Notes under the pieces: generated by a model | What the model saw: the letters and a program-made list of their open reading frames with translations, nothing else | Told to the model about the DNA's origin: nothing | Databases searched by the model: none | Translations under genes and position numbers: made by a program | DNA from: a phage | Length of the DNA stretch: 64,000 nt | NCBI GenBank assembly: GCA_018015315.1 | Contig: GCA_018015315.1_3629.1 | Direction: 5' to 3' (one strand) | Part shown: positions 4,745 to 60,515 of the stretch, piece after piece | How positions within the stretch are numbered: the stretch's first letter is position 1 | Layout of the letters: every line of letters starts with the position of its first letter

Positions 4745-4818
4745 ATACTTTCTCCTTTCATGGTGTTGATAAACTATCTTTATAGATGGCCCTGTTCCAG
4801 GACCACCGAAAAAACAAT

Positions 4819-5064: not shown

Positions 5065-5101
5065 GATTTTAACTCCTCTGTAAGTGTTAACAGTTTTTTA
5101 G

Positions 5102-5145
5102 TTTACTTTATTGATGGCCCTGGTGTCAAGGCCATCTAAAAATAA
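5102..5145. repeat. 44-bp palindromic intercistronic element, copy 2
   Basis: Same sequence as copy 1; abuts stop codon of gene 5148..5498. Confidence 0.8.
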
Positions 5146-5147
5146 GC

Positions 5148-5498
5148 TTACTCGTTTTCTTCCAGCTCTGTAAGCTCTTCTTTCACTTCTTCAAGCTCTG
5201 CCTGCAATTCTTGATAGTCTTCATCGTCTTCAATATCCAAGCTATCAATATAATCGCTAAAGCCGCAGCGATAAGCGATAGGATCCAGCTCTCTGAGGAT
5301 ACGTGAAGGAAGGAAAGAGATACAGCCGATCATAATTTCACCGTGGATCTCATCCAACCATTCATCATATTTTTCGTCGTATTTGTCCTCGTCGATCTCG
5401 AAATTATCGATCTTGTCTTCAAGTTCTGCGATCTGTTTTTTCAGAGCAGCGATCTGCATAGCTTTTTCTGCGTCAGTCATAGTGATCGTGGTATTCAT
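5148..5498 (-). CDS. acidic coiled-coil protein (116 aa)
   Basis: ORF track; Glu/Asp-rich heptad-like sequence; promoter 5551-5578 upstream; 44-bp palindrome abuts stop. Confidence 0.55.
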   Translation of the reverse strand: MNTTITMTDAEKAMQIAALKKQIAELEDKIDNFEIDEDKYDEKYDEWLDEIHGEIMIGCISFLPSRILRELDPIAYRCGFSDYIDSLDIEDDEDYQELQAELEEVKEELTELEENE

Positions 5499-5694: not shown

Positions 5695-5734
5695 CTTATA
5701 TACTCCCCTTTTTGTAGTATTCTCTATATCTAAT

Positions 5735-5779
5735 TTATTTTATTTGATGGCCCTGGTTATCAAGGCCATCTAAAAATAA
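5735..5779. repeat. 44-bp palindromic intercistronic element, copy 3 (variant loop)
   Basis: GATGGCCctggttatcaaGGCCATCtaaaaataa; abuts stop codon of gene 5782..6168. Confidence 0.75.
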
Positions 5780-5781
5780 AC

Positions 5782-6168
5782 TCAGTAATTTTTCAACACT
5801 TTCCCGTCCAGTCTGTCAAGCTGGATCTCAATAGCTGCGGAGAATCTATTGTACACCACGTCGCCCATGGAGTCCAACCAATCTATAATATTATATACTT
5901 GCTCCTTGTTCTTGCAAGTACGTATCCGTTTCATAACGTATGCCGGATCAATATTGTTACTTCCGTGTTTATGGTCTTGCGCCAGGCTTGCAATAGCTTT
6001 CACCACCACTTGAAAGGGCTTCAAGGTGCCTTTTGCGTTCATCTCACGCGCTTTTGCGGCGCGGTTGTTATAGGTTACGATACGGCGGCAAATATTGACT
6101 AAATGCATGTCAATAATTTTTTCATCGTTTGCCAGCTCATTCATGATGCGACGGATATTTTTGTTCAT
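5782..6168 (-). CDS. hypothetical protein (128 aa)
   Basis: ORF track; promoter 6220-6247 plus 5' stem-loop upstream; 44-bp palindrome abuts stop. Confidence 0.55.
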   Translation of the reverse strand: MNKNIRRIMNELANDEKIIDMHLVNICRRIVTYNNRAAKAREMNAKGTLKPFQVVVKAIASLAQDHKHGSNNIDPAYVMKRIRTCKNKEQVYNIIDWLDSMGDVVYNRFSAAIEIQLDRLDGKVLKNY

Positions 6169-28540: not shown

Positions 28541-28566
28541 ATAACTCCAAATAGAAAATCCCCGCC
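28541..28566 (-). terminator. intrinsic terminator, UUCG-loop family
   Basis: CCCCGC-UUCG-GCGGGG then AUUUUCUAUUU. Confidence 0.55.
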
Positions 28567-28587
28567 GAAGCGGGGTGGTCTTAGAAA

Positions 28588-28977: not shown

Positions 28978-30162
28978 TTAAGCTTTAGCCAAAATGGCGC
29001 TAAACTCTTCACCAAACTCTTTTACAATCTTCATCAGGTTTGGGTATGCTTTGATCAGCTGAGCAACAATCTTGTCACGACCTTTACCGATAAGCAAGGC
29101 ATTTCCTAAGGCATTAGGTTTCATCATCGCCATAAAGACTGAGAATACAAAATCTCGGTTCTCGTCCTTGAAGTTTTCCCAAAGGAAATCGAGGAAGTTT
29201 GCCACGCAGCTGACAAGATCTTCGTCTGAGATACTTGCATTTTCCATCATATTACGAATAGCGATACAACCTTCAGATCCAAGAATCCACAAGATGTCTG
29301 GCTGTTTAGGACCTACGTATTCTTTGCAACCTCCTGCCATAATCCGACCGATTTCCGGTAAGTTGCGTTTCTTGGTGTGGTAAGTCCAGATCTCTACCGC
29401 TGCAGTGTGACCAATAGCGCCTTGCAGAAGAACACGGGCCATAGCGTCAGAAATAATACCACTGTCAAAATCGTGCAAAATATCAGATGCAGCAACCCAA
29501 GATCGCGGTGTGGCAAAAGATGGACAATTAATCTCAGCCATGGCCTCATAATTATCGATAGCTGATGGAACTCTTTTCAGATATCCAATTACAGAGGAGT
29601 GCACCCCATTAAGGAATGCGTAGTCCTCAATAAACACCTCTGCATTGCTTGTAACTTCTACAATGATAAAACGGTTAGCCAGAGGGGCTTCGAGCGCCGA
29701 AAGAACCGCACCATCTGTAGAACGGTTACCAGCAGCCACAAAAACAGAGCCTTTAGGGAATGCATAGGTGCCGCACTTGTGGTCGAGCATAATTTGCATT
29801 GCAACCTTTTGCAGGTAGTTATCTGCATGAGTGAGCTCATCAAGAAAGATAATTCCGCTCCAGTCAGGATCCGCAGGCCAAAATTCTGGAATTGCAAACA
29901 CTGTACGTGTAGTTCCATCCGCTTCTACAGGGATAGGTAGCCCAGATAAGTCGGCAGGATCTTTATCTGACAGCCGCACGTCAACCAGGTTGTCATCTCG
30001 CTCACCGAACATATTGTCGGCGATCTGCTTCATCACCTGGCTCTTTCCCACGCCCATTGGTCCTAAAATCAGGACAGATCGGTTATGACGCTGGGCAAAC
30101 TGAATGATAGCTGGCAACTCACGGACAGTGATTTGACCACTTTCAAATACGTTTCTTGACAT
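28978..30162 (-). CDS. MoxR/CbbQ-like AAA+ ATPase
   Basis: Walker A GPMGVGKS; Walker B IIFLDELTHAD; 394 aa. Confidence 0.75.
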   Translation of the reverse strand: MSRNVFESGQITVRELPAIIQFAQRHNRSVLILGPMGVGKSQVMKQIADNMFGERDDNLVDVRLSDKDPADLSGLPIPVEADGTTRTVFAIPEFWPADPDWSGIIFLDELTHADNYLQKVAMQIMLDHKCGTYAFPKGSVFVAAGNRSTDGAVLSALEAPLANRFIIVEVTSNAEVFIEDYAFLNGVHSSVIGYLKRVPSAIDNYEAMAEINCPSFATPRSWVAASDILHDFDSGIISDAMARVLLQGAIGHTAAVEIWTYHTKKRNLPEIGRIMAGGCKEYVGPKQPDILWILGSEGCIAIRNMMENASISDEDLVSCVANFLDFLWENFKDENRDFVFSVFMAMMKPNALGNALLIGKGRDKIVAQLIKAYPNLMKIVKEFGEEFSAILAKA

Positions 30163-30858: not shown

Positions 30859-31116
30859 TCAGTCCACCTCTTCTTCTCGTTGTAGTTCAAGATACCCGTA
30901 GGTCTGGACATCTTGAAGGGTGTGGAACTCTCCATCTGCCGCTAAGGCACGAACAACTTGGCACAAAACCTTATGAGGAACTTCATCCAGACCCAGATTC
31001 AGTGCAGGAAACACCTTATCTAAGTCAACAAAATAAACAAACTGTAGCTCACCAGCTTCAAAAGGTGTATCTTCAATAAACATCTTCTCGGCATTAGTCA
31101 AGATCTGCACTTTCAT
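30859..31116 (-). CDS. hypothetical protein (85 aa)
   Basis: ORF track. Confidence 0.45.
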   Translation of the reverse strand: MKVQILTNAEKMFIEDTPFEAGELQFVYFVDLDKVFPALNLGLDEVPHKVLCQVVRALAADGEFHTLQDVQTYGYLELQREEEVD

Positions 31117-31472
31117 TATTCTACCTCCTCTTCTTTTTCTTCGGCATTAGTTTCAGTGCTACCCCACTCTGGAGTTTCCACCTCGATAGTAAACTCACGT
31201 ACTACACGGTAATTGCCCATGAAGCGCTCCACTTCGTCAAGGCTTACGGAGAAGCCATTGGCAACCAGGTCTGCAGCACCCTCTTCTACCAGGTAGTCCA
31301 GATTGGCTTCCAAAGCTTCAGGCTCAAACCCTGTTAATGCAATCAGATAACCTTCCCCTTCATCAGGGAGGACAATACATCCCAACTGATTTTCTTTGAA
31401 AAGGCAGTGACCATCATTATTGATTGGGTGTTCATTGCAGTAAATAGCTGCACGATAAGTAACTTTAGACAT
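31116..31472 (-). CDS. hypothetical protein starting MSKVTYRA (about 118 aa)
   Basis: ORF 31116..31493 trimmed to ATG at 31472 with SD AAGGAG 8 nt upstream; start region lies in the 29-bp inverted repeat. Confidence 0.5.
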   Translation of the reverse strand: MSKVTYRAAIYCNEHPINNDGHCLFKENQLGCIVLPDEGEGYLIALTGFEPEALEANLDYLVEEGAADLVANGFSVSLDEVERFMGNYRVVREFTIEVETPEWGSTETNAEEKEEEVE

Positions 31473-31477
31473 CGGTA
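31449..31477. repeat. 29-bp perfect inverted repeat, left copy
   Basis: Reverse complement equals TACCGATGTCTAAAGTTACTTATCGTGCA; spans start codon and first 8 codons of gene 31116..31472. Confidence 0.85.
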
Positions 31478-31485
31478 AGGTCTCC

Positions 31486-31764
31486 TTAGGCAATTGTCAT
31501 TTTACATTCTTGAAATTTTAACACAAGACGGTGATTGTGTCTAGTGTCTAAAAAGATTTTTTCAACCATCAGGCACACGGTATAACCGTCCATCTTGTTG
31601 ACAACAAAATCTCCAGGATGAGGGAGGATGTCTCCCGGATTGGGGAAACATAGTCCACTCAGAAAGGCATCGTCAGTGGTGGACTTAATAGATTTCCACA
31701 CACTGTCTGCCTGAACATGTTCACCGACGTAATATACATTACCACATGCCTTCATCATAGTCAA
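31486..31764 (-). CDS. hypothetical protein (92 aa)
   Basis: ORF track. Confidence 0.45.
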   Translation of the reverse strand: MTMMKACGNVYYVGEHVQADSVWKSIKSTTDDAFLSGLCFPNPGDILPHPGDFVVNKMDGYTVCLMVEKIFLDTRHNHRLVLKFQECKMTIA

Positions 31765-32660
31765 ACCCTCGCATAAATTAAACTTGTATCAGTATACTTC
31801 TTTAATGGGTAAATATCCTGTCCATAGATGCAATCATTAAACACCTCATCTACCCAAAGGCTACACTTATATCCCATCATTTCTAAAACACCCATCTCTT
31901 CTTCGGTAAACTTATCACCGCTCTTGCAAGATGTCAATACCTCATTCTGAACTCTTGCTACCTCGAAGCGGTTATTGGAAATATCGCTATTGGCGATCAA
32001 ATACTCACCTAGAGGGTGTGCGGCATTAAAGATGCACAGTGGACGGCTGACGTAATAGTCTCCGGGTGTATAAAAATTGTTGAGGTCTTTCACTAGAACA
32101 TTCTTATCAGTCACTTCATTTATAACATCATGCATATCGCACATCTTTATATGTTTGAGGATTCCATCCCCCGTCACAAAATAAAAACTTGCTGAGACAC
32201 TTTCGGCATAGATCTTACTAGATCCGTTGTAGTTGTATTTTACTCGGATGCTAACGGGGGTTTTTCCTGTCGCGTTAGCCATCATCCAAAGAAATGGCAG
32301 CTCATACTTCTCCTCTGAGGAAACAAAAGGTGAGGTAGCCAGAGATCGAAAACCTCCAGAGAAGTTGAAAGTTACAGAACCGCTCCGGCGGTATGATACC
32401 GCGTATTCTACTTTTATATCGACGTACCCATTGGAATAGGTGTGTCCTTCATTATCTAAATATGTCCACTTATCAGACCCAGATACCAATCTACGCTCAA
32501 TAACCTTCATCACTACAGGAATTAGTGGGTTGGTACAAACCGCTTTTGAAGTAGCTTTATCATCTAAAGCCTCGTAAATTGCAGAAAGGATGTCCCCAGC
32601 TGAAAGATTGGTTGTTATGTCCTGTTTCCACCGCGTACTAAAACTGTTAAGATTTGCCAT
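31761..32660 (-). CDS. hypothetical protein (299 aa)
   Basis: ORF track; driven by minus promoter 32701-32729; SD AGGAG. Confidence 0.6.
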   Translation of the reverse strand: MANLNSFSTRWKQDITTNLSAGDILSAIYEALDDKATSKAVCTNPLIPVVMKVIERRLVSGSDKWTYLDNEGHTYSNGYVDIKVEYAVSYRRSGSVTFNFSGGFRSLATSPFVSSEEKYELPFLWMMANATGKTPVSIRVKYNYNGSSKIYAESVSASFYFVTGDGILKHIKMCDMHDVINEVTDKNVLVKDLNNFYTPGDYYVSRPLCIFNAAHPLGEYLIANSDISNNRFEVARVQNEVLTSCKSGDKFTEEEMGVLEMMGYKCSLWVDEVFNDCIYGQDIYPLKKYTDTSLIYARV

Positions 32661-32700
32661 GAGGGAGTGCTCCTATGTTAGTTTTATTTCTAATGGGTGC

Positions 32701-32729
32701 ACTATATCGGAGATTTAGAGTAAAGTCAA
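32701..32729 (-). promoter_or_regulatory. sigma70-type promoter, leftward arm of divergent pair
   Basis: -35 TTGACT, 17-nt spacer, -10 TATAGT; reads into gene 31761..32660. Confidence 0.5.
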
Positions 32730-32742
32730 CACGTTTTTGATG

Positions 32743-32771
32743 TTGACATCTATTGAAACAATTGATACGAT
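32743..32771 (+). promoter_or_regulatory. sigma70-type promoter, rightward arm of divergent pair
   Basis: -35 TTGACA, 17-nt spacer, -10 TACGAT; reads into HNH-like gene. Confidence 0.5.
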
Positions 32772-32802
32772 TTCTTCACTTACAGAGCACGAGAGACAAC
32801 TC

Positions 32803-33780
32803 ATGAATCTTGAAAAATATTATACACCAGAAGAGTTAGAGCGCCTGCTCAAAAAATATAGACGCAAACAGAATAATGCACGGAAACGAGATATAGAGTT
32901 CGACCTGTCATGGGAAGAATACCTCCTATTTGGTAAAAAACTTTTAGGAGATGGAGTATGCGACTATACCCTTATACCTTTTGACATGCACACAGATGAA
33001 AACGGGCTGGGAAATCCTTTCTACCCATCTCTGGAGCGGATAGATGATGAAGGTCCTTATGCGGTTGATAACTGTTGTGTAGTGGGATTGAGATGCAACT
33101 CTCTAAAGGACTGTCTGGTAGATAAAAAGACTGCAGTCTTGATTAAAGACGAAACTGATCGAAAAATTGTCCAGCAGATGATGCTCCACCTGAGCGAAGA
33201 GCGTATGGAGAAATTGAAAGGTGATTATACTTTTGAAGATTTCATCTTGCAATATGGAACGGAAGAGGATAAACTAGCACTCTTTGACGAAGAAGAGGAG
33301 GAAGATATGCTACCGATGTCTAAAGTTACTTATCGTGCACCCAAGAAGCACATTTCCGACATTGTAAACGAGCCTATCACAGAAGAGATTGAAGAAATGA
33401 CGCAACAGGTGCATGAAGAGGAAAAAGAGACTCAGGAGGTCGAAGAGGAGCTTACAGAAGAGGTTCCTGCACTACCTGATGATGTTGAGATTGCCAAAGC
33501 TTACACTTTCTATTGTCAAACGTTCTACGATGTAGGTATGAAAGTTGATCTGTCGTTCAGCCAATTTAAGAGTTCGTATATTCGCAAATGCTGTGCTTTA
33601 ACTGGTGAACGTCTTGGAGCTGGACTTAAACCCCTGTTGGTGACCGACTGGAATAAAGGTTTCACTAAAGGAAACTTTATGGTAGTATCTCCAATTATGG
33701 AGAAAGCTATGACAGATCTTATGAAGACCACCCGCATGACAATGACCGAGTTGGCAGGTATTTTCAAACACGTTAAATAA
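32803..33780 (+). CDS. HNH-endonuclease-like protein with two tandem degenerate HNH-type domains
   Basis: SLERIDDEGPYAVDNCCVVGLRCNSLK and weaker repeat VTDWNKGFTKGNFMVVSPIMEK; acidic linker carries internal SD+ATG (MSKVTYRA) inside the 29-bp inverted repeat; start set to MNLEKYY because track start overlaps promoter. Confidence 0.55.
   Translation: MNLEKYYTPEELERLLKKYRRKQNNARKRDIEFDLSWEEYLLFGKKLLGDGVCDYTLIPFDMHTDENGLGNPFYPSLERIDDEGPYAVDNCCVVGLRCNSLKDCLVDKKTAVLIKDETDRKIVQQMMLHLSEERMEKLKGDYTFEDFILQYGTEEDKLALFDEEEEEDMLPMSKVTYRAPKKHISDIVNEPITEEIEEMTQQVHEEEKETQEVEEELTEEVPALPDDVEIAKAYTFYCQTFYDVGMKVDLSFSQFKSSYIRKCCALTGERLGAGLKPLLVTDWNKGFTKGNFMVVSPIMEKAMTDLMKTTRMTMTELAGIFKHVK
33311..33339. repeat. 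29-bp perfect inverted repeat, right copy
   Basis: TACCGATGTCTAAAGTTACTTATCGTGCA inside HNH-like ORF, encoding LPMSKVTYRA after SD-like GAGGAGGAAGA. Confidence 0.85.
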
Positions 33781-33813: not shown

Positions 33814-35274
33814 ATGGATATCAGAAGTTCAGAAATCATTGCCTCACAAAAAGATGATGCCCTGAGAATGTTGCAGGCTGCACGTATGTATCTCCTTGAA
33901 AAGCTGCCGTTTTATGGCACACTGCTGTCAGGATTGCAGTTCGTAGAAAACCATACATGGTGCTCCACCATGGCAACCGACCATAAACGCATCTATTACA
34001 GTCCTGAGTTCATTATGGGGTTGGCTGATGAACGTAAGGCTATTCTTAAGGCTTCTCTAACTGACGAGCAGTTTGAGATGGCTGAGGTTTTCTATTCCCC
34101 CAAATCTGTGAAAGAGGTGGCCTTTCTTCTGTCGCATGAGGTGGGGCATATTATCTGTGATCACCTGGTCCGTGGTAAAAGCTTTGAGCCGGAACTGTTC
34201 AATATTGCTTGTGATCACGTTATCAACACAGGACTTGTGGTTGACTTTAGCAAGCCTCCTTGTGTTTTCTTCCCGAAGGGGAAAAGCACTACGTTCGTGA
34301 AAGGTAAGCCTTTTGGCTTCTTAGCCAGCTGCTACTGCGATATGAAGTTTCATGGATGGATTGCTGAGAACGTTTATGCAGTTCTTGATAAGCAAAGAGA
34401 TCAGAATAACGGTAAAAGTAAGAACGGTAAAGGTGAGAACTCTCAAGGTGATAAGCGACAAACAGATGATCACATGAGTGGGAACGGTGGCACCAGTGAT
34501 GATCTTGGAAAAGCTATAGGGTATGATCAGCCACAACCTGTAATCAGCCAATCTGATAAAGATCAGGCCATGCAGGACTCTGGTGATATGCTGGAGGCAG
34601 CAATGCAAGCGTCCGGAGGCCGTTGCCCCGAGGCGGTGCGTGAGTTTGTCAAGAACAGAGGTAAGCCTGTAATCAACTATATAGACATCATTAAGCAACG
34701 CATGTTGTCTAAACGAAAGGCTGAACTGACCTACAGAAAACCTGGTCGCCGATCTGGGTCTTTGACCAGCACAATGCGAAAAGTTGGGGCTATAAACAAG
34801 AACCAGCACGTTATTGTTCCTGGTCGTAATCCGGAAAACACTATAGATATTGTGGTGGCTTTAGACGTTTCTGGCTCGATCTCTCAAAGAACTTTAAAGA
34901 AAATGTTCAATGAAATCACCGGATTGTGCAATCTGTATAAAGAGTTTAAGGTTACAATGTTCTGTTGGTCAACTGAGGTTGGAGAGGTTAAAGTATACAC
35001 TCGCGGCAACATAGACGAGATGATTAACTATGAGGTCCACTCAACATGGGGCACAACAGCTGCTTGCGTGTTCGAGTATCTGGATGCCAACATACCGAAT
35101 GCAAAAGATGTCATCGTCCTGACCGACCTATACTTTGAGCATAACTTTGAACAAAAGGTTGTTGACAACAAGTGGAAAAAGTACGATACTTTATGGGTTC
35201 TAACCGAAGGGTATAATAAAAATTATATCCCGAGCTTTGGGAAAACTGTGGAATTAATCGAGTACGCTAAGTAA
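33814..35274 (+). CDS. metallopeptidase-like + von Willebrand factor A domain protein
   Basis: HExxH motif LSHEVGHIICDH; MIDAS motif VVALDVSGSIS; start MDIRSSEII with GGAG SD. Confidence 0.75.
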   Translation: MDIRSSEIIASQKDDALRMLQAARMYLLEKLPFYGTLLSGLQFVENHTWCSTMATDHKRIYYSPEFIMGLADERKAILKASLTDEQFEMAEVFYSPKSVKEVAFLLSHEVGHIICDHLVRGKSFEPELFNIACDHVINTGLVVDFSKPPCVFFPKGKSTTFVKGKPFGFLASCYCDMKFHGWIAENVYAVLDKQRDQNNGKSKNGKGENSQGDKRQTDDHMSGNGGTSDDLGKAIGYDQPQPVISQSDKDQAMQDSGDMLEAAMQASGGRCPEAVREFVKNRGKPVINYIDIIKQRMLSKRKAELTYRKPGRRSGSLTSTMRKVGAINKNQHVIVPGRNPENTIDIVVALDVSGSISQRTLKKMFNEITGLCNLYKEFKVTMFCWSTEVGEVKVYTRGNIDEMINYEVHSTWGTTAACVFEYLDANIPNAKDVIVLTDLYFEHNFEQKVVDNKWKKYDTLWVLTEGYNKNYIPSFGKTVELIEYAK

Positions 35275-47538: not shown

Positions 47539-48585
47539 TTAAGCATAAGATATAGTGATCCATTGACCATTTACAAGTTTTTGGATAGCACCTGTCCAGT
47601 AGTCACCTTGATAAGGGTGTTTATAAGCGTAGTTACCAGAGCACATCACATGTCCAGGGTAGACTCTTGACTCTCTGTAGGTGGTTTTGAAACGGTTTGC
47701 TATCCTTACATCATCAACCCCTCTGCTAGGCATAGGAATAGTAAGGTTACCACTACTGTCTGCGCCGTTACCATTTACCCTGCGGACCACGTTTCTTCCA
47801 CCAACTGTTGCATATTGGCCCCTGACGGTTTCATCGTTACAATCAACTCTTCCACCTATTTGAGCGCTTCCGCAGGATTGTTGTCCATTAACAGTGGCTC
47901 TTGGTATAGTAACTGCATTGGCATTTGCAGAGGAACTTTTTGCATCGTTGCATTCAAGATTTCCTTGGATAGCCAGTCTTGCACGGTTGGCAGTTATAGC
48001 ATTGAGCTTCATAGCCGAAAACACAGGATGCCCACCAGAAGGTTGAAATCTCCAACGGAACCCGTCTATTTGGTGAGAAGGATCATCAAGGTCTGTGCCG
48101 TCAGCACCGCCGATGTTGTCCATAATCCAGAAGTCCATAGTCGTCTTGTCTGGAGTTATGGTGGTATATATTGCCGCATTGTCTGTTGACGCAGATGCAA
48201 ACTCGATTCTTTGAAGACCTAAAGTTTGAGTCTGAGTCATTATGTCTCCAGACTTGTCAACATACAGATCGTCCATTTCTTCAGGCGAGTATACATTGAG
48301 AACTTGACGTGCAGCAGCTTTGTCTGGAACGTCTGCTAGATTATTAGTGACCCTTAAGAATCTATTGTCCCATCCTGGGACAACATCCTCTGTTAAATGC
48401 TTTAACCACGCAGAAAGCATGTGAAGTTCAAAGTTAACAACTTCACATGCCACTCTTTGTGTCATATCCCAACCTTTCAATCTCTCTTCTTTTTTTGGTT
48501 GAGATTTATTCAACTCTCCCGTATTTTCAAGCACAACATCCTGATTGGCCCAAATATCAAGAGGGATAACTGGTTTAGTCATCAC
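47539..48585 (-). CDS. tail fibre protein, paralog A (348 aa)
   Basis: Conserved N-terminus and C-terminal tip IQKLVNGQWITISYA shared with 49597..50637; tip resembles recalled P2 gpH C-terminus. Confidence 0.65.
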   Translation of the reverse strand: MMTKPVIPLDIWANQDVVLENTGELNKSQPKKEERLKGWDMTQRVACEVVNFELHMLSAWLKHLTEDVVPGWDNRFLRVTNNLADVPDKAAARQVLNVYSPEEMDDLYVDKSGDIMTQTQTLGLQRIEFASASTDNAAIYTTITPDKTTMDFWIMDNIGGADGTDLDDPSHQIDGFRWRFQPSGGHPVFSAMKLNAITANRARLAIQGNLECNDAKSSSANANAVTIPRATVNGQQSCGSAQIGGRVDCNDETVRGQYATVGGRNVVRRVNGNGADSSGNLTIPMPSRGVDDVRIANRFKTTYRESRVYPGHVMCSGNYAYKHPYQGDYWTGAIQKLVNGQWITISYA

Positions 48586-49596: not shown

Positions 49597-50637
49597 CTAT
49601 GCATAATTAACAGTGATCCATTGACCATTTACAAGTTTTTGTAAAGGTCCTGCCCAGTAGGTTGAACCACGCATCTCTTTTTTGTCACCGAAATGCCAAC
49701 CTGTGACAACGTAGCCGTTGCGAATTGGAGATTCGGAAACGCCGTCAACAAGTCTTGCACCGATTCTGATGTCTTGCACACCTGTCTGCGGGATAGTGAT
49801 CGTTACATCACCGTTGCCGTTAGCTGTCACTCCATTCACGGAGCGCACCACATTTCTGTTACCGACAACACAGTGCTGGCTTCTTACAACCATACTGTCA
49901 CAACTTGCACCACCATTAATATATACTGACCCAGCCGTCAACTGACTAGCCACATTACAGTTGGTGAATGTTGCTGTATTGCTGATAGTAAGGTTATTGC
50001 ACCTCATGTTATCGACAACTTCAACATTGCCTACCACTTTCAACAGCGCACGGTTAGCCGTGATCGCGTTAAGGTACATCAAAGTGAACTCTGGATTAAT
50101 ATCCGGCTGAGTTGGCTGGAATCTCCAACGAAACGCATCTACTGTAGATGTACCACCATCATCAAACGACCCAATATTATCACTTAACCCGAAGTCGAGA
50201 GTTGTCTTATCTGGGCCAATAGTTGTCTCTATCCAAGCCTTATCTGTCTCGGCAGCTTTAAAGTTGATACGTTGCAAACCCAATGGGCCTGTCATTGTAT
50301 CACCTGTAACTTTTACATACCTGGCGTCTGCCTCTTCCTTAGTAATAATCCCAAGGTTTCTACGGGCAACAGGAATGTTCAAAAGATCACTCAAGTTATT
50401 ATCACGTACCAGATAACGGCCTTCTTGAGCGGGGATCTGCTCGTCAGCAATGTATTTTGCCCAAGTTCCGAGCATATTGAAAATATAGTTAAGTTCTTCA
50501 CATGAGGGCTTTTGACCAAGATCCCAACCTTTTCTCCACAAATCATCAATCGGGCGTAGCCTGTTCTGTCTGTGGGTGTTAGGCAGAACCTGATCCTCCT
50601 CTGCCCAAATCTCTAATGGAAAACTAGGTTTTGACAT
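49597..50637 (-). CDS. tail fibre protein, paralog B (346 aa)
   Basis: N-terminus MSKPSFPLEIWAEEDQVLPNT and tip LQKLVNGQWITVNYA shared with paralog A; central region divergent. Confidence 0.7.
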   Translation of the reverse strand: MSKPSFPLEIWAEEDQVLPNTHRQNRLRPIDDLWRKGWDLGQKPSCEELNYIFNMLGTWAKYIADEQIPAQEGRYLVRDNNLSDLLNIPVARRNLGIITKEEADARYVKVTGDTMTGPLGLQRINFKAAETDKAWIETTIGPDKTTLDFGLSDNIGSFDDGGTSTVDAFRWRFQPTQPDINPEFTLMYLNAITANRALLKVVGNVEVVDNMRCNNLTISNTATFTNCNVASQLTAGSVYINGGASCDSMVVRSQHCVVGNRNVVRSVNGVTANGNGDVTITIPQTGVQDIRIGARLVDGVSESPIRNGYVVTGWHFGDKKEMRGSTYWAGPLQKLVNGQWITVNYA

Positions 50638-54978: not shown

Positions 54979-55006
54979 CATAAAAATAAACCCCGCCGAA
55001 GCGGGG
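54979..55006 (-). terminator. intrinsic terminator, UUCG-loop family
   Basis: AGCCCCGC-UUCG-GCGGGG then UUUAUUUUUAUG. Confidence 0.7.
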
Positions 55007-60482: not shown

Positions 60483-60515
60483 ATATAAACAAAAAGCCCC
60501 CGCCGAAGCGAGGGC
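60483..60515 (-). terminator. intrinsic terminator, UUCG-loop family
   Basis: GCCCUCGC-UUCG-GCGGGGGC then UUUUUGUUUAU. Confidence 0.6.

Follow-up and report, generated by a model that had tools for sequence, protein, structure and literature searches.

A perfect 29-bp inverted repeat in a Vequintavirus genome is probably the footprint of a short templated patch

Introduction

When a template switch occurs between imperfect inverted repeats, the two arms become homogenised and multinucleotide changes arise in coding DNA; switching of this kind was first proposed for phage T4 (PMC8604942). In such quasipalindrome or inverted-repeat switches (Ripley model; Abraham & Hazkani-Covo 2021, PMC8604942), an imperfect inverted repeat becomes perfect in the derived lineage. 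One templated event yields a cluster of substitutions together with an indel, several adjacent amino acids are replaced, short matches lie at both switch points and the donor arm is unchanged; all of these features recur at the locus described below. Documented switches mostly involve spacers of tens of bases, and a yeast study, which searched only inverted repeats with spacers of up to 70 nt, found the shorter spacers among the repeats that switch (PMC8604942).

Ectopic short-tract gene conversion or synthesis-dependent strand annealing offers a further parallel: as here, copying from a nearby non-allelic donor is non-reciprocal, the donor is left intact and the orientation of the arms is irrelevant. 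Other described systems resemble the locus in its layout. In the Hin/Gin/Cin systems and in shufflons, inverted repeats surround a promoter-containing segment, lie within coding sequence and share a common frame. T7 gene 4A/4B and phiX174 A/A* are phage genes with nested in-frame internal starts, in which, as at our locus, an in-frame ATG follows a Shine-Dalgarno (SD)-like sequence within a longer ORF, where two domains meet. Here we analyse a perfect inverted repeat in a 64-kb stretch of phage DNA (the window), which belongs to the 'murica' type of Vequintavirus, the rV5-like E. coli phages.

Results

The repeat joins the start of gp008 to the linker of an Srd-like gene

The exact 29-mer TACCGATGTCTAAAGTTACTTATCGTGCA is present once on each strand of the window, at 31449-31477 (minus) and 33311-33339 (plus), with a spacer of 1,833 nt separating the arms; the preliminary description was correct in reporting perfect copies some 1.8 kb apart. 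The whole window contains no other inverted repeat of 22 nt or longer (14-nt seed), and no third copy was found in the 64 kb at up to three mismatches.

The minus-strand arm (31449..31477), which we regard as the donor, forms the start of the gp008-like gene (31116..31472, minus strand, 118 aa; ORF list; PHROG 12908, E 2e-79), as had been described. It comprises 4 nt of 5' leader plus a 'G', the ATG at 31472 and codons 2-8, encoding MSKVTYRA. Both the CDS and a ribosome-binding site are annotated for this gene in phage Murica. The gene is restricted to the genus Vequintavirus, to which all 117 records matched by tblastn belong; Pfam, NCBIfam and PDB sequence searches gave nothing usable for it. 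Its SD sequence, AAGGAG, lies at 31487-31482, 9 nt upstream of the start. The preliminary description had placed an SD sequence before each copy, and SD-like sequences do stand upstream of both, although neither lies inside the repeat.

The plus-strand arm (33311..33339), an exact match and the putative recipient, falls within the gp11-like gene (32803..33780, plus strand, 325 aa), which consists of a conserved N-domain, a hypervariable acidic linker and a conserved C-domain. The linker holds 27 D/E in 76 residues, varies in length and sequence across Vequintavirinae and is probably disordered. Here the repeat occupies residues 171-179, and MSKVTYRA is read in frame with the ORF as residues 172-179; the internal ATG is real but starts at 33316, not at 33317 as first reported. 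The protein matches the profiles of PHROG 3118, 4592 ('decoy of host sigma70', E 3e-13) and 1400 ('Srd anti-sigma factor', E 2e-10), and gp11 of rV5 has been described as a probable Srd homolog (PMC3606486). By sequence it is similar to the T4 Srd family. The label 'HNH-like', which it had been given earlier, proved to be a matter of naming (the PHROG families are labelled HNH, endonuclease VII or Srd, and RefSeq uses such names), as no Pfam family, HNH and Endonuclease VII included, matched either domain even at E up to 10. The PDB sequences contained no match to the ORF, and searches of Pfam, NCBIfam and PDB sequences with the ORF and its halves returned nothing usable. An internal duplication relating the N-domain to the C-domain is unproven (hhalign probability 1.6%).

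Between the arms lie the gp009-like gene (31486-31758, minus strand; PHROG 12847) and the gp010-like gene (31761-32660, minus strand; PHROG 12338), both supported by the ORF list and the annotation of relatives, and a predicted divergent sigma70-like promoter pair (32701..32771) between the gp010-like and gp11-like genes. In the consensus scan the minus (32729..32701) and plus (32743..32771) promoters each score 10/12, and the annotation of phage Gotham includes them. The arms thus bracket the two genes and the promoters named in the preliminary description, which was incomplete in that the first 171 codons of the plus-strand gene are enclosed as well. A further promoter-like match lies directly upstream of the plus copy (33284-33311); the scan gave 8 matches in total with 6.6 expected, which is chance level.

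The plus-strand copy is derived and confined to murica-type alleles

Among alleles of the Srd-like gene, the murica type alone has the plus copy. Of the loci compared, the window, L001, L002, L018, L019, L020 and L025 carry this allele; it occurs in 28 of about 115-120 GenBank records (115 being the count of matching records) and in a human-gut metagenome contig, whereas IMG/VR contained none. Twelve of the 16 Vequintavirus loci fetched first lack the plus copy, with more than 8 mismatches across the 29-mer. Conservation of the 29-mer in relatives does not hold for this copy, then, which is lacking in about three quarters of the genus. The minus-strand 29-mer stands at the same place with 0-3 mismatches in 16/16 Vequintavirus loci, including those without the plus copy, and varies among relatives at positions 2, 3, 4, 5, 11, 16, 17 and 29. 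Because the gp008 copy is found in all Vequintavirus loci and the plus copy only in those of the murica type, gp008 is the apparent donor, and the sequences indicate transfer from the gp008 start into the linker of the Srd-like gene.

The linker is a different one, …SPMQDFKNFMADRAAN…, in all other members of the genus and in an outgroup of 65% identity (L005-L008). Its sequence is …EEDMSPMQDFKNFMADRAANKHIS… in non-murica alleles and …MTPAQELREFMEKR-AEKHIK… in the outgroup; since both agree in this, the QDFKNFMADR form of the linker can be taken as ancestral. With polarity set by the outgroup, the murica-type allele (29/29) is derived relative to the other alleles (more than 8 mismatches). In 27 records the 89 nt surrounding the patch show 100% identity, and these alleles appear to trace to one event. 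The two copies have since drifted: in phages Alma and ECP32 they match at 27/29 positions, with changes only in the gp008 copy of Alma and in both copies of ECP32. Because they diverge independently in these phages, there appears to be no constraint coupling the two.

We resolved the anatomy of the patch by aligning the nucleotides of the murica-type allele with rV5-, FV3- and slur16-type alleles and the outgroup. The ancestral sequence reads ATG TC ACCGATG, 25 nt, ATCGTGCA GCC; the murica type reads ATG CT ACCGATG TCTAAAGTTACTT ATCGTGCA CCC; and gp008 reads CCT T ACCGATG TCTAAAGTTACTT ATCGTGCA GCT. The ancestral linker thus held ACCGATG and ATCGTGCA, 25 nt apart, before the event. The left anchor (33312..33318, plus strand) pre-existed as ACCGATG or ACCAATG (Pro-Met), the former in L012 and the latter in most others, and the right anchor (33332..33339, plus strand) pre-existed in rV5-type linkers, its FV3-type counterpart being ATCGTGGA. 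Between them, 13 newly templated nt (TCTAAAGTTACTT, 33319..33331, plus strand) replace 25 ancestral nt (CAGGATTTTAAAAATTTCATGGCTG), a net loss of 12 nt that keeps the frame. Differences cluster at the patch, affecting 21 of 45 columns, whereas most other windows of the gene show 0-8. Higher counts elsewhere come from the linker immediately downstream and reach 18 in rV5-type comparisons, which have a 9-nt indel there.

A templated patch as the likely origin

We consider the 29-mer on the plus strand likely to be a derived mutational footprint without function, left by a templated patch. The comparison places the event in the common ancestor of the murica-type allele. DNA synthesis over the acidic linker would have been templated briefly by the gp008 start, 1.8 kb away and in opposite orientation, at a linker that already contained two short chance matches to that start, ACCGATG and, 25 nt on, ATCGTGCA. 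The nascent strand would pair at one match, copy the intervening 13 nt of gp008 and return at the other match, so that 25 nt become 13 nt in frame (a loss of four codons) and a chance quasi-repeat of 7 + 8 nt is converted into a perfect 29-bp inverted repeat. The route could have been either a template switch or a short-tract gene conversion, primed by microhomology in both cases. With 1,833 nt between the arms, an intramolecular switch of the hairpin type is unlikely, and a cross-fork, intermolecular or recombination-associated switch (or repair synthesis) must be assumed. The switch might have happened at the replication fork, where the growing leading strand could anneal to the lagging-strand template, still single-stranded at a distance of about one Okazaki length behind it, or during repair synthesis following a break. 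The change presumably persisted because the linker is hypervariable and probably disordered, and the shared ATG and eight shared codons would be a by-product rather than a selected initiation cassette. That the plus copy lacks a function is suggested by its distribution and by the drift of the arms.

Two features of the alignment, like the wide spacing of the arms, count against this reading. The pre-existing homology used in the switch may have been very short, because anchors of the FV3/A141 type, the closest ancestral alleles, match exactly at only 6/7 and 6 nt (rV5-type linkers offer 7 nt + 8 nt). Moreover, gp008 cannot have templated three substitutions adjacent to the patch (TTA/TCA to CTA on its left; GCC to CCC and also AAC to AAG on its right), for which separate mutations are needed.

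Compared with known systems, the locus departs from template-switch mutations in its spacer (1,833 nt versus tens of nt), which makes a simple nascent-strand hairpin impossible, and in its donor, a different gene's start. A few untemplated flanking substitutions would fit the error-prone repair synthesis of gene conversion or synthesis-dependent strand annealing; unlike in those processes, the pre-existing homology here is just 6-8 nt per side, and the site shows no sign of a homing element or of a nuclease that makes breaks. The earlier suggestion of a footprint of endonuclease-driven gene conversion holds in essence, in the modified form of a derived patch templated by the gp008 start; nothing implicates an endonuclease. 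The finding is an ordinary one: mutational footprints of this kind are known, and only the 1.8-kb spacing of the arms is unusual. It nevertheless provides a clean natural case, with ancestral, donor and derived sequences all at hand, of how chance microhomology can produce, in one step, an inverted repeat that is both long and perfect, together with what looks like a 'shared translation start'. The case also suggests that, in a large lytic phage, a patch can be templated from a donor kilobases away, and it is a warning not to infer function from such repeats in phage genomes; no further biological consequence of the repeat is evident.

Alternative explanations

Several other readings of the repeat deserve weighing against a templated patch. 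Chance similarity or an assembly artefact is vanishingly improbable and was refuted outright: about 9.5e-9 (roughly 1e-8) perfect 29-nt inverted pairs are expected in 64 kb analytically, 0 of 100 shuffled sequences had any match to the 29-mer, and the same allele appears in 27 independently deposited records and in the metagenome contig. The 29-mer might instead serve as a DNA or RNA (translational) operator at which one factor couples expression of gp008 and the Srd-like gene, as the identical sense 29-mer would be on both mRNAs and the two sites flank the divergent promoter region. This is very unlikely, given that the plus site is missing from most of the genus, that the gp008 site varies among relatives, and that in whole genomes among the GenBank records we found no third 29-mer, each record having it in at most two places. 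Internal initiation is a more specific proposal, in which the copied gp008 start provides an in-frame start at 33316 for a separate 154-aa C-terminal product for which the allele was selected. The ATG at 33316 is in frame with the Srd-like ORF, its next seven codons are those of a genuine gene start, the allele is found in 28 records, and the GAGGAGG upstream (33295-33301) forms a strong predicted anti-SD duplex (computed dG -12.0 kcal/mol at 5-nt spacing). But the ATG and GAGGAGG are ancestral and outside the newly copied 13 nt, and the true gp008 SD (AAGGAG) was not carried over. GAGGAGG is built from Glu codons of the acidic linker and lies 14 nt from the ATG at 33316 but only 5 nt from an older in-frame ATG at 33307 (M169); that pair (33295..33309, plus strand) predates the patch, lies outside the repeat and is conserved across the genus and the outgroup. 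Full-length two-domain proteins make up 205 of 211 phage homologs, among which no stand-alone C-domain gene was seen. The sole split record, Salmonella phage 18-India, is interrupted within a conserved helix rather than the linker, and is probably a frameshift error and not a natural split gene. In contrast to T7 4A/4B and phiX174 A/A*, there is no sign of a second product, the SD and ATG are older than the repeat, and the spacing to the repeat's own ATG is poor. With the two copies also drifting independently in Alma and ECP32, we regard selected internal initiation as unlikely, and the proposed reused initiation cassette finds no support: its ATG and SD-like sequence were already there, the latter outside the repeat and 14 nt away, and three quarters of the genus do without the 29-mer.

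Finally, homologous recombination between the arms could flip the segment 31478-33310 as a variation switch, swapping the divergent promoters and yielding an Srd-N::gp008 fusion (289 aa) and a stand-alone C-domain gene. The inverted arms are perfect and share a reading frame, such that both recombinant junctions (J1, …GAAGATATGC-29mer-GCTATTTACTGC…; J2, …AAGGAGACCT-29mer-CCCAAGAAGCAC…) are predicted to be in frame and still transcribed. However, every murica-type genome aligns collinearly with the window as a single piece of 3.2 kb, L018-L020 and L025 carry the parental junctions, the arms have decayed to 27/29 in two phages, J1 is covered over at least 80% in 0/119 GenBank records, and exact J1 was not found in metagenome contigs. 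Pfam and PHROG scans of the ten ORFs between 28978 and 35274 detected no recombinase or invertase domain. The locus thus differs from Hin/Gin/Cin systems and shufflons in having no site-specific recombinase gene, a single orientation in all genomes, arms that drift and a repeat that most of the genus lacks. A role as inversion substrate, raised in the preliminary description together with a search for both orientations, is physically possible but unsupported, the GenBank records and metagenome contigs holding one orientation only, and we judge such a switch quite unlikely. For homologous exchange to be efficient, 29 bp is close to the minimum length. We think it highly improbable that rare exchange between the arms gives a viable inverted genome, in which the promoters would be swapped, the Srd N-domain fused to gp008 and the C-domain turned into a gene of its own, with translation from the gp008 ribosome-binding site. 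Should inverted molecules form and be open to selection, the scar would have given murica-type phages a new switch that shuffles domains and swaps promoters.

A 29-nt inverted repeat shared by two opposed genes

The window is closest to the 'murica' species group of Vequintavirus (rV5-like myoviruses), and several Escherichia phages match it at 98.5% identity over 3.2 kb. The 29-mer TACCGATGTCTAAAGTTACTTATCGTGCA is present in it exactly twice: the minus-strand copy spans 31449-31477, the plus-strand copy 33311-33339, and 1,833 nt separate these arms. The window contains no other inverted repeat of 22 nt or longer, and no third copy of the 29-mer at up to three mismatches. The preliminary description was correct to place the sequence on both strands, and the match is far beyond chance: base composition predicts ~1e-8 perfect inverted 29-nt pairs per 64 kb, and 0 of 100 shuffles gave a match. 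A 118-aa gene (31116-31472; gp008 in annotated relatives) has its ATG (31472) and codons 2-8 within the minus copy, and the plus copy falls in frame at residues 172-179 of a 325-aa ORF (32803-33780; gp011 in annotated relatives). Between the arms lie two genes on the minus strand (31486-31758 and 31761-32660), a pair of divergent sigma70-like promoters (32729..32701, minus; 32743..32771, plus) and codons 1-171 of the plus gene.

Gp008 is genus-specific, with all 117 of its records belonging to Vequintavirus; the plus gene occurs throughout Vequintavirinae and is full-length in 205 of 211 records. Its protein matches PHROG 3118 over its full length, and the N-terminal ~115 residues match PHROGs labeled 'decoy of host sigma70', 'Srd anti-sigma factor' and 'endonuclease VII'. 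This agrees with the rV5 paper, in which gp11 is named as a probable Srd homolog (PMC3606486). Searching this Srd-like protein against Pfam, NCBIfam and PDB sequences gave no match, so the 'HNH' label of its gene lacks independent support. RefSeq and PHROG annotation name both this ORF and 33814-35274 'HNH endonuclease'; Pfam finds no domain in the former and assigns the latter both a DUF2201_N metallopeptidase and a VWA-like domain. Together with a MoxR-like AAA ATPase gene (28978-30162), the latter appears to form a MoxR/VWA pair on either side of the locus. By eye, the N domain (32803-33147; …FDLSWEEY…C.YT…PSLERID..G.Y…N..VV…) has a counterpart in the C domain (33460-33777; …VDLSFSQF…C.LT…PLLVTD..GF…N..VV…), a common pattern that suggests an ancient internal duplication; hhalign of the two domains on a shallow alignment gave a probability of 1.6%.

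The plus copy is derived

The comparison drew on a varied set of relatives taken from GenBank, IMG/VR and metagenome contigs. Every Vequintavirus locus fetched carries the gp008 copy with 0-3 mismatches. Among these loci the plus copy is restricted to the window, Murica, Gotham, inoa, Alma, ECP32 (one mismatch) and one human-gut metagenome contig; it is not in A141, phita32, FV3, O157 typing phage 5, rV5_ev147, slur16, ECML-10, bov22_2, 12A_SA_NWU or two IMG/VR contigs. Across GenBank, the 89 nt around it are found at 100% identity in 27 records and at 97.8% in one, and the remaining ~90 Vequintavirus records have a different linker. Sixteen unannotated, UNVERIFIED-flagged 'Campylobacter phage' records (MG0656xx, e.g. 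MG065672) share 96-98% identity with E. coli Vequintavirus genomes, and their stated host is probably wrong.

The protein linker reads …EEDMSPMQDFKNFMADRAANKHIS… in non-murica alleles and …EEDMLPMSK----VTYRAPKKHIS… in the window. In an outgroup of four IMG/VR contigs (L005-L008; ~65% protein identity, conserved synteny) it reads …MTPAQELREFMEKR-AEKHIK…, which marks the QDFKNFMADR type as the ancestral linker, from which the murica form derives. The origin of the donor sequence also falls inside the genus, since gp008 of the outgroup begins MKIVILRN…. These uncultivated contigs (118-141 kb) are a sister group to Vequintavirus, with the Srd-like protein ~65% identical, gp008 ~27% identical and gp6-gp11 synteny kept; they could be members of a Vequintavirinae clade described recently.

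Anatomy and origin of the linker change

At the nucleotide level, the rV5-type linker reads ATG TC ACCGATG CAGGATTTTAAAAATTTCATGGCTG ATCGTGCA GCC, the gp008 start CCT T ACCGATG TCTAAAGTTACTT ATCGTGCA GCT, and the murica linker ATG CT ACCGATG TCTAAAGTTACTT ATCGTGCA CCC. The ancestral linker and the gp008 start already had a 7-mer and an 8-mer in common, in inverted orientation, and these matches are at chance level. Between them, 25 nt of linker were swapped for the 13 nt from the same interval at gp008, which removed four codons in frame and left a 29-nt perfect repeat. Only 33319-33331 and the T at 33311 are new in the plus copy; ATG 33316, a second ATG at 33307 and a GAGGAGG are ancestral. 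The patch stands out as a dense cluster of mutations: it differs from any non-murica allele at 21 of 45 columns, and most other windows of the gene at 0-8, the exceptions lying in the linker just downstream (up to 18 plus a 9-nt indel in rV5-type comparisons). Three adjoining substitutions (T->C 33310, G->C 33340, C->G 33345) are not templated and need separate mutations.

This anatomy shows that a tract was copied once, and non-reciprocally, from the start of gp008 into the gp011 linker, with microhomology at its boundaries. An earlier reading as an endonuclease-driven gene-conversion footprint holds in that the plus copy was templated from the gp008 start, but no nuclease is implicated. A nascent DNA strand probably switched template to the gp008 start. 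Template switching of this kind, first proposed for phage T4, is documented to homogenise imperfect inverted repeats and to create multinucleotide changes in coding DNA, mostly across spacers of tens of nucleotides (PMC8604942); the Vequintavirus arms, by contrast, are so far apart that a nascent-strand hairpin is implausible. The geometry fits a switch across the fork, because the donor would then be single-stranded lagging-strand template trailing the fork by roughly the length of one Okazaki fragment. It fits equally well a broken end that was extended by repair synthesis and then re-annealed at the second microhomology; either route would leave the same sequence.

Inversion, internal initiation and present function

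The preliminary description also proposed that the enclosed segment inverts, or that the repeat is a reused initiation cassette. Since the arms have a common frame, exchange would yield an in-frame 289-aa fusion of the Srd-like N domain to gp008 and a stand-alone C-domain gene. However, all murica-type genomes are collinear in one orientation, the predicted junction occurs in 0 of 119 GenBank records and was not found in metagenome contigs, and Pfam and PHROG scans found no recombinase among neighboring genes; inversion is not supported. Nor is use of the copied gp008 start within the Srd-like gene. Shine-Dalgarno-like sequences do precede both copies, but neither belongs to the 29-mer: the true gp008 site (AAGGAG, 31487-31482, minus strand, 9 nt from its ATG) was not copied, and the plus-strand GAGGAGG (33295-33301), made of Glu codons, pre-existed 14 nt from the internal ATG, which is at 33316 rather than 33317. 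Srd-like homologs are, moreover, nearly always full-length and two-domain.

The plus copy is missing from about three-quarters of the genus, and several further observations argue against a function today. The copies are free to diverge: Alma has two changes in the gp008 copy and none in the plus copy, and in ECP32 both copies have changed and differ from each other at two positions. Among relatives, eight positions of the gp008 arm vary, and the acidic linker (27 D/E in 76 residues) varies freely in length and sequence across the subfamily. The pair is best read as the scar of a templated mutation that happened once, in a single Vequintavirus lineage, a new case of a known kind of mutation whose unusual feature is its kilobase arm spacing.

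Where the linker opens (33295-33309), the GAGGAGG also lies 5 nt upstream of the in-frame ATG 33307 (M169). Pairing of this motif with the anti-SD (dG -12.0) is far stronger than pairing at the annotated start, 32803 (dG -3.0). The motif is older than the patch and persists both in the genus and in the outgroup of 65% identity; an old internal start, a pause site or simply Glu codons could account for it. In Salmonella phage 18-India (KR091942, 1501-2357), a 33-kb partial record labeled a complete genome, the annotation divides the Srd-like gene into two overlapping CDS; the split falls inside a conserved MEKLKTKY helix and is most likely a frameshift error.

Other repeats in the window

A ~64-nt intergenic repeat family (805-868, 5087-5150, 5731-5792; also 4770-4796), within which the hairpin GATGGCCCTGGTGTCAAGGCCATC precedes an A/T-rich tract, could be a terminator or promoter module present in several copies. 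The GC-rich hairpin CCCCGCCGAAGCGGGG, present three times (28548-28575, 54979-55006, 60486-60513), looks like a shared intrinsic-terminator stem. A 63-nt direct repeat of 84% identity (47540-47602 and 49598-49660, 2 kb apart) may mark paralogous genes.
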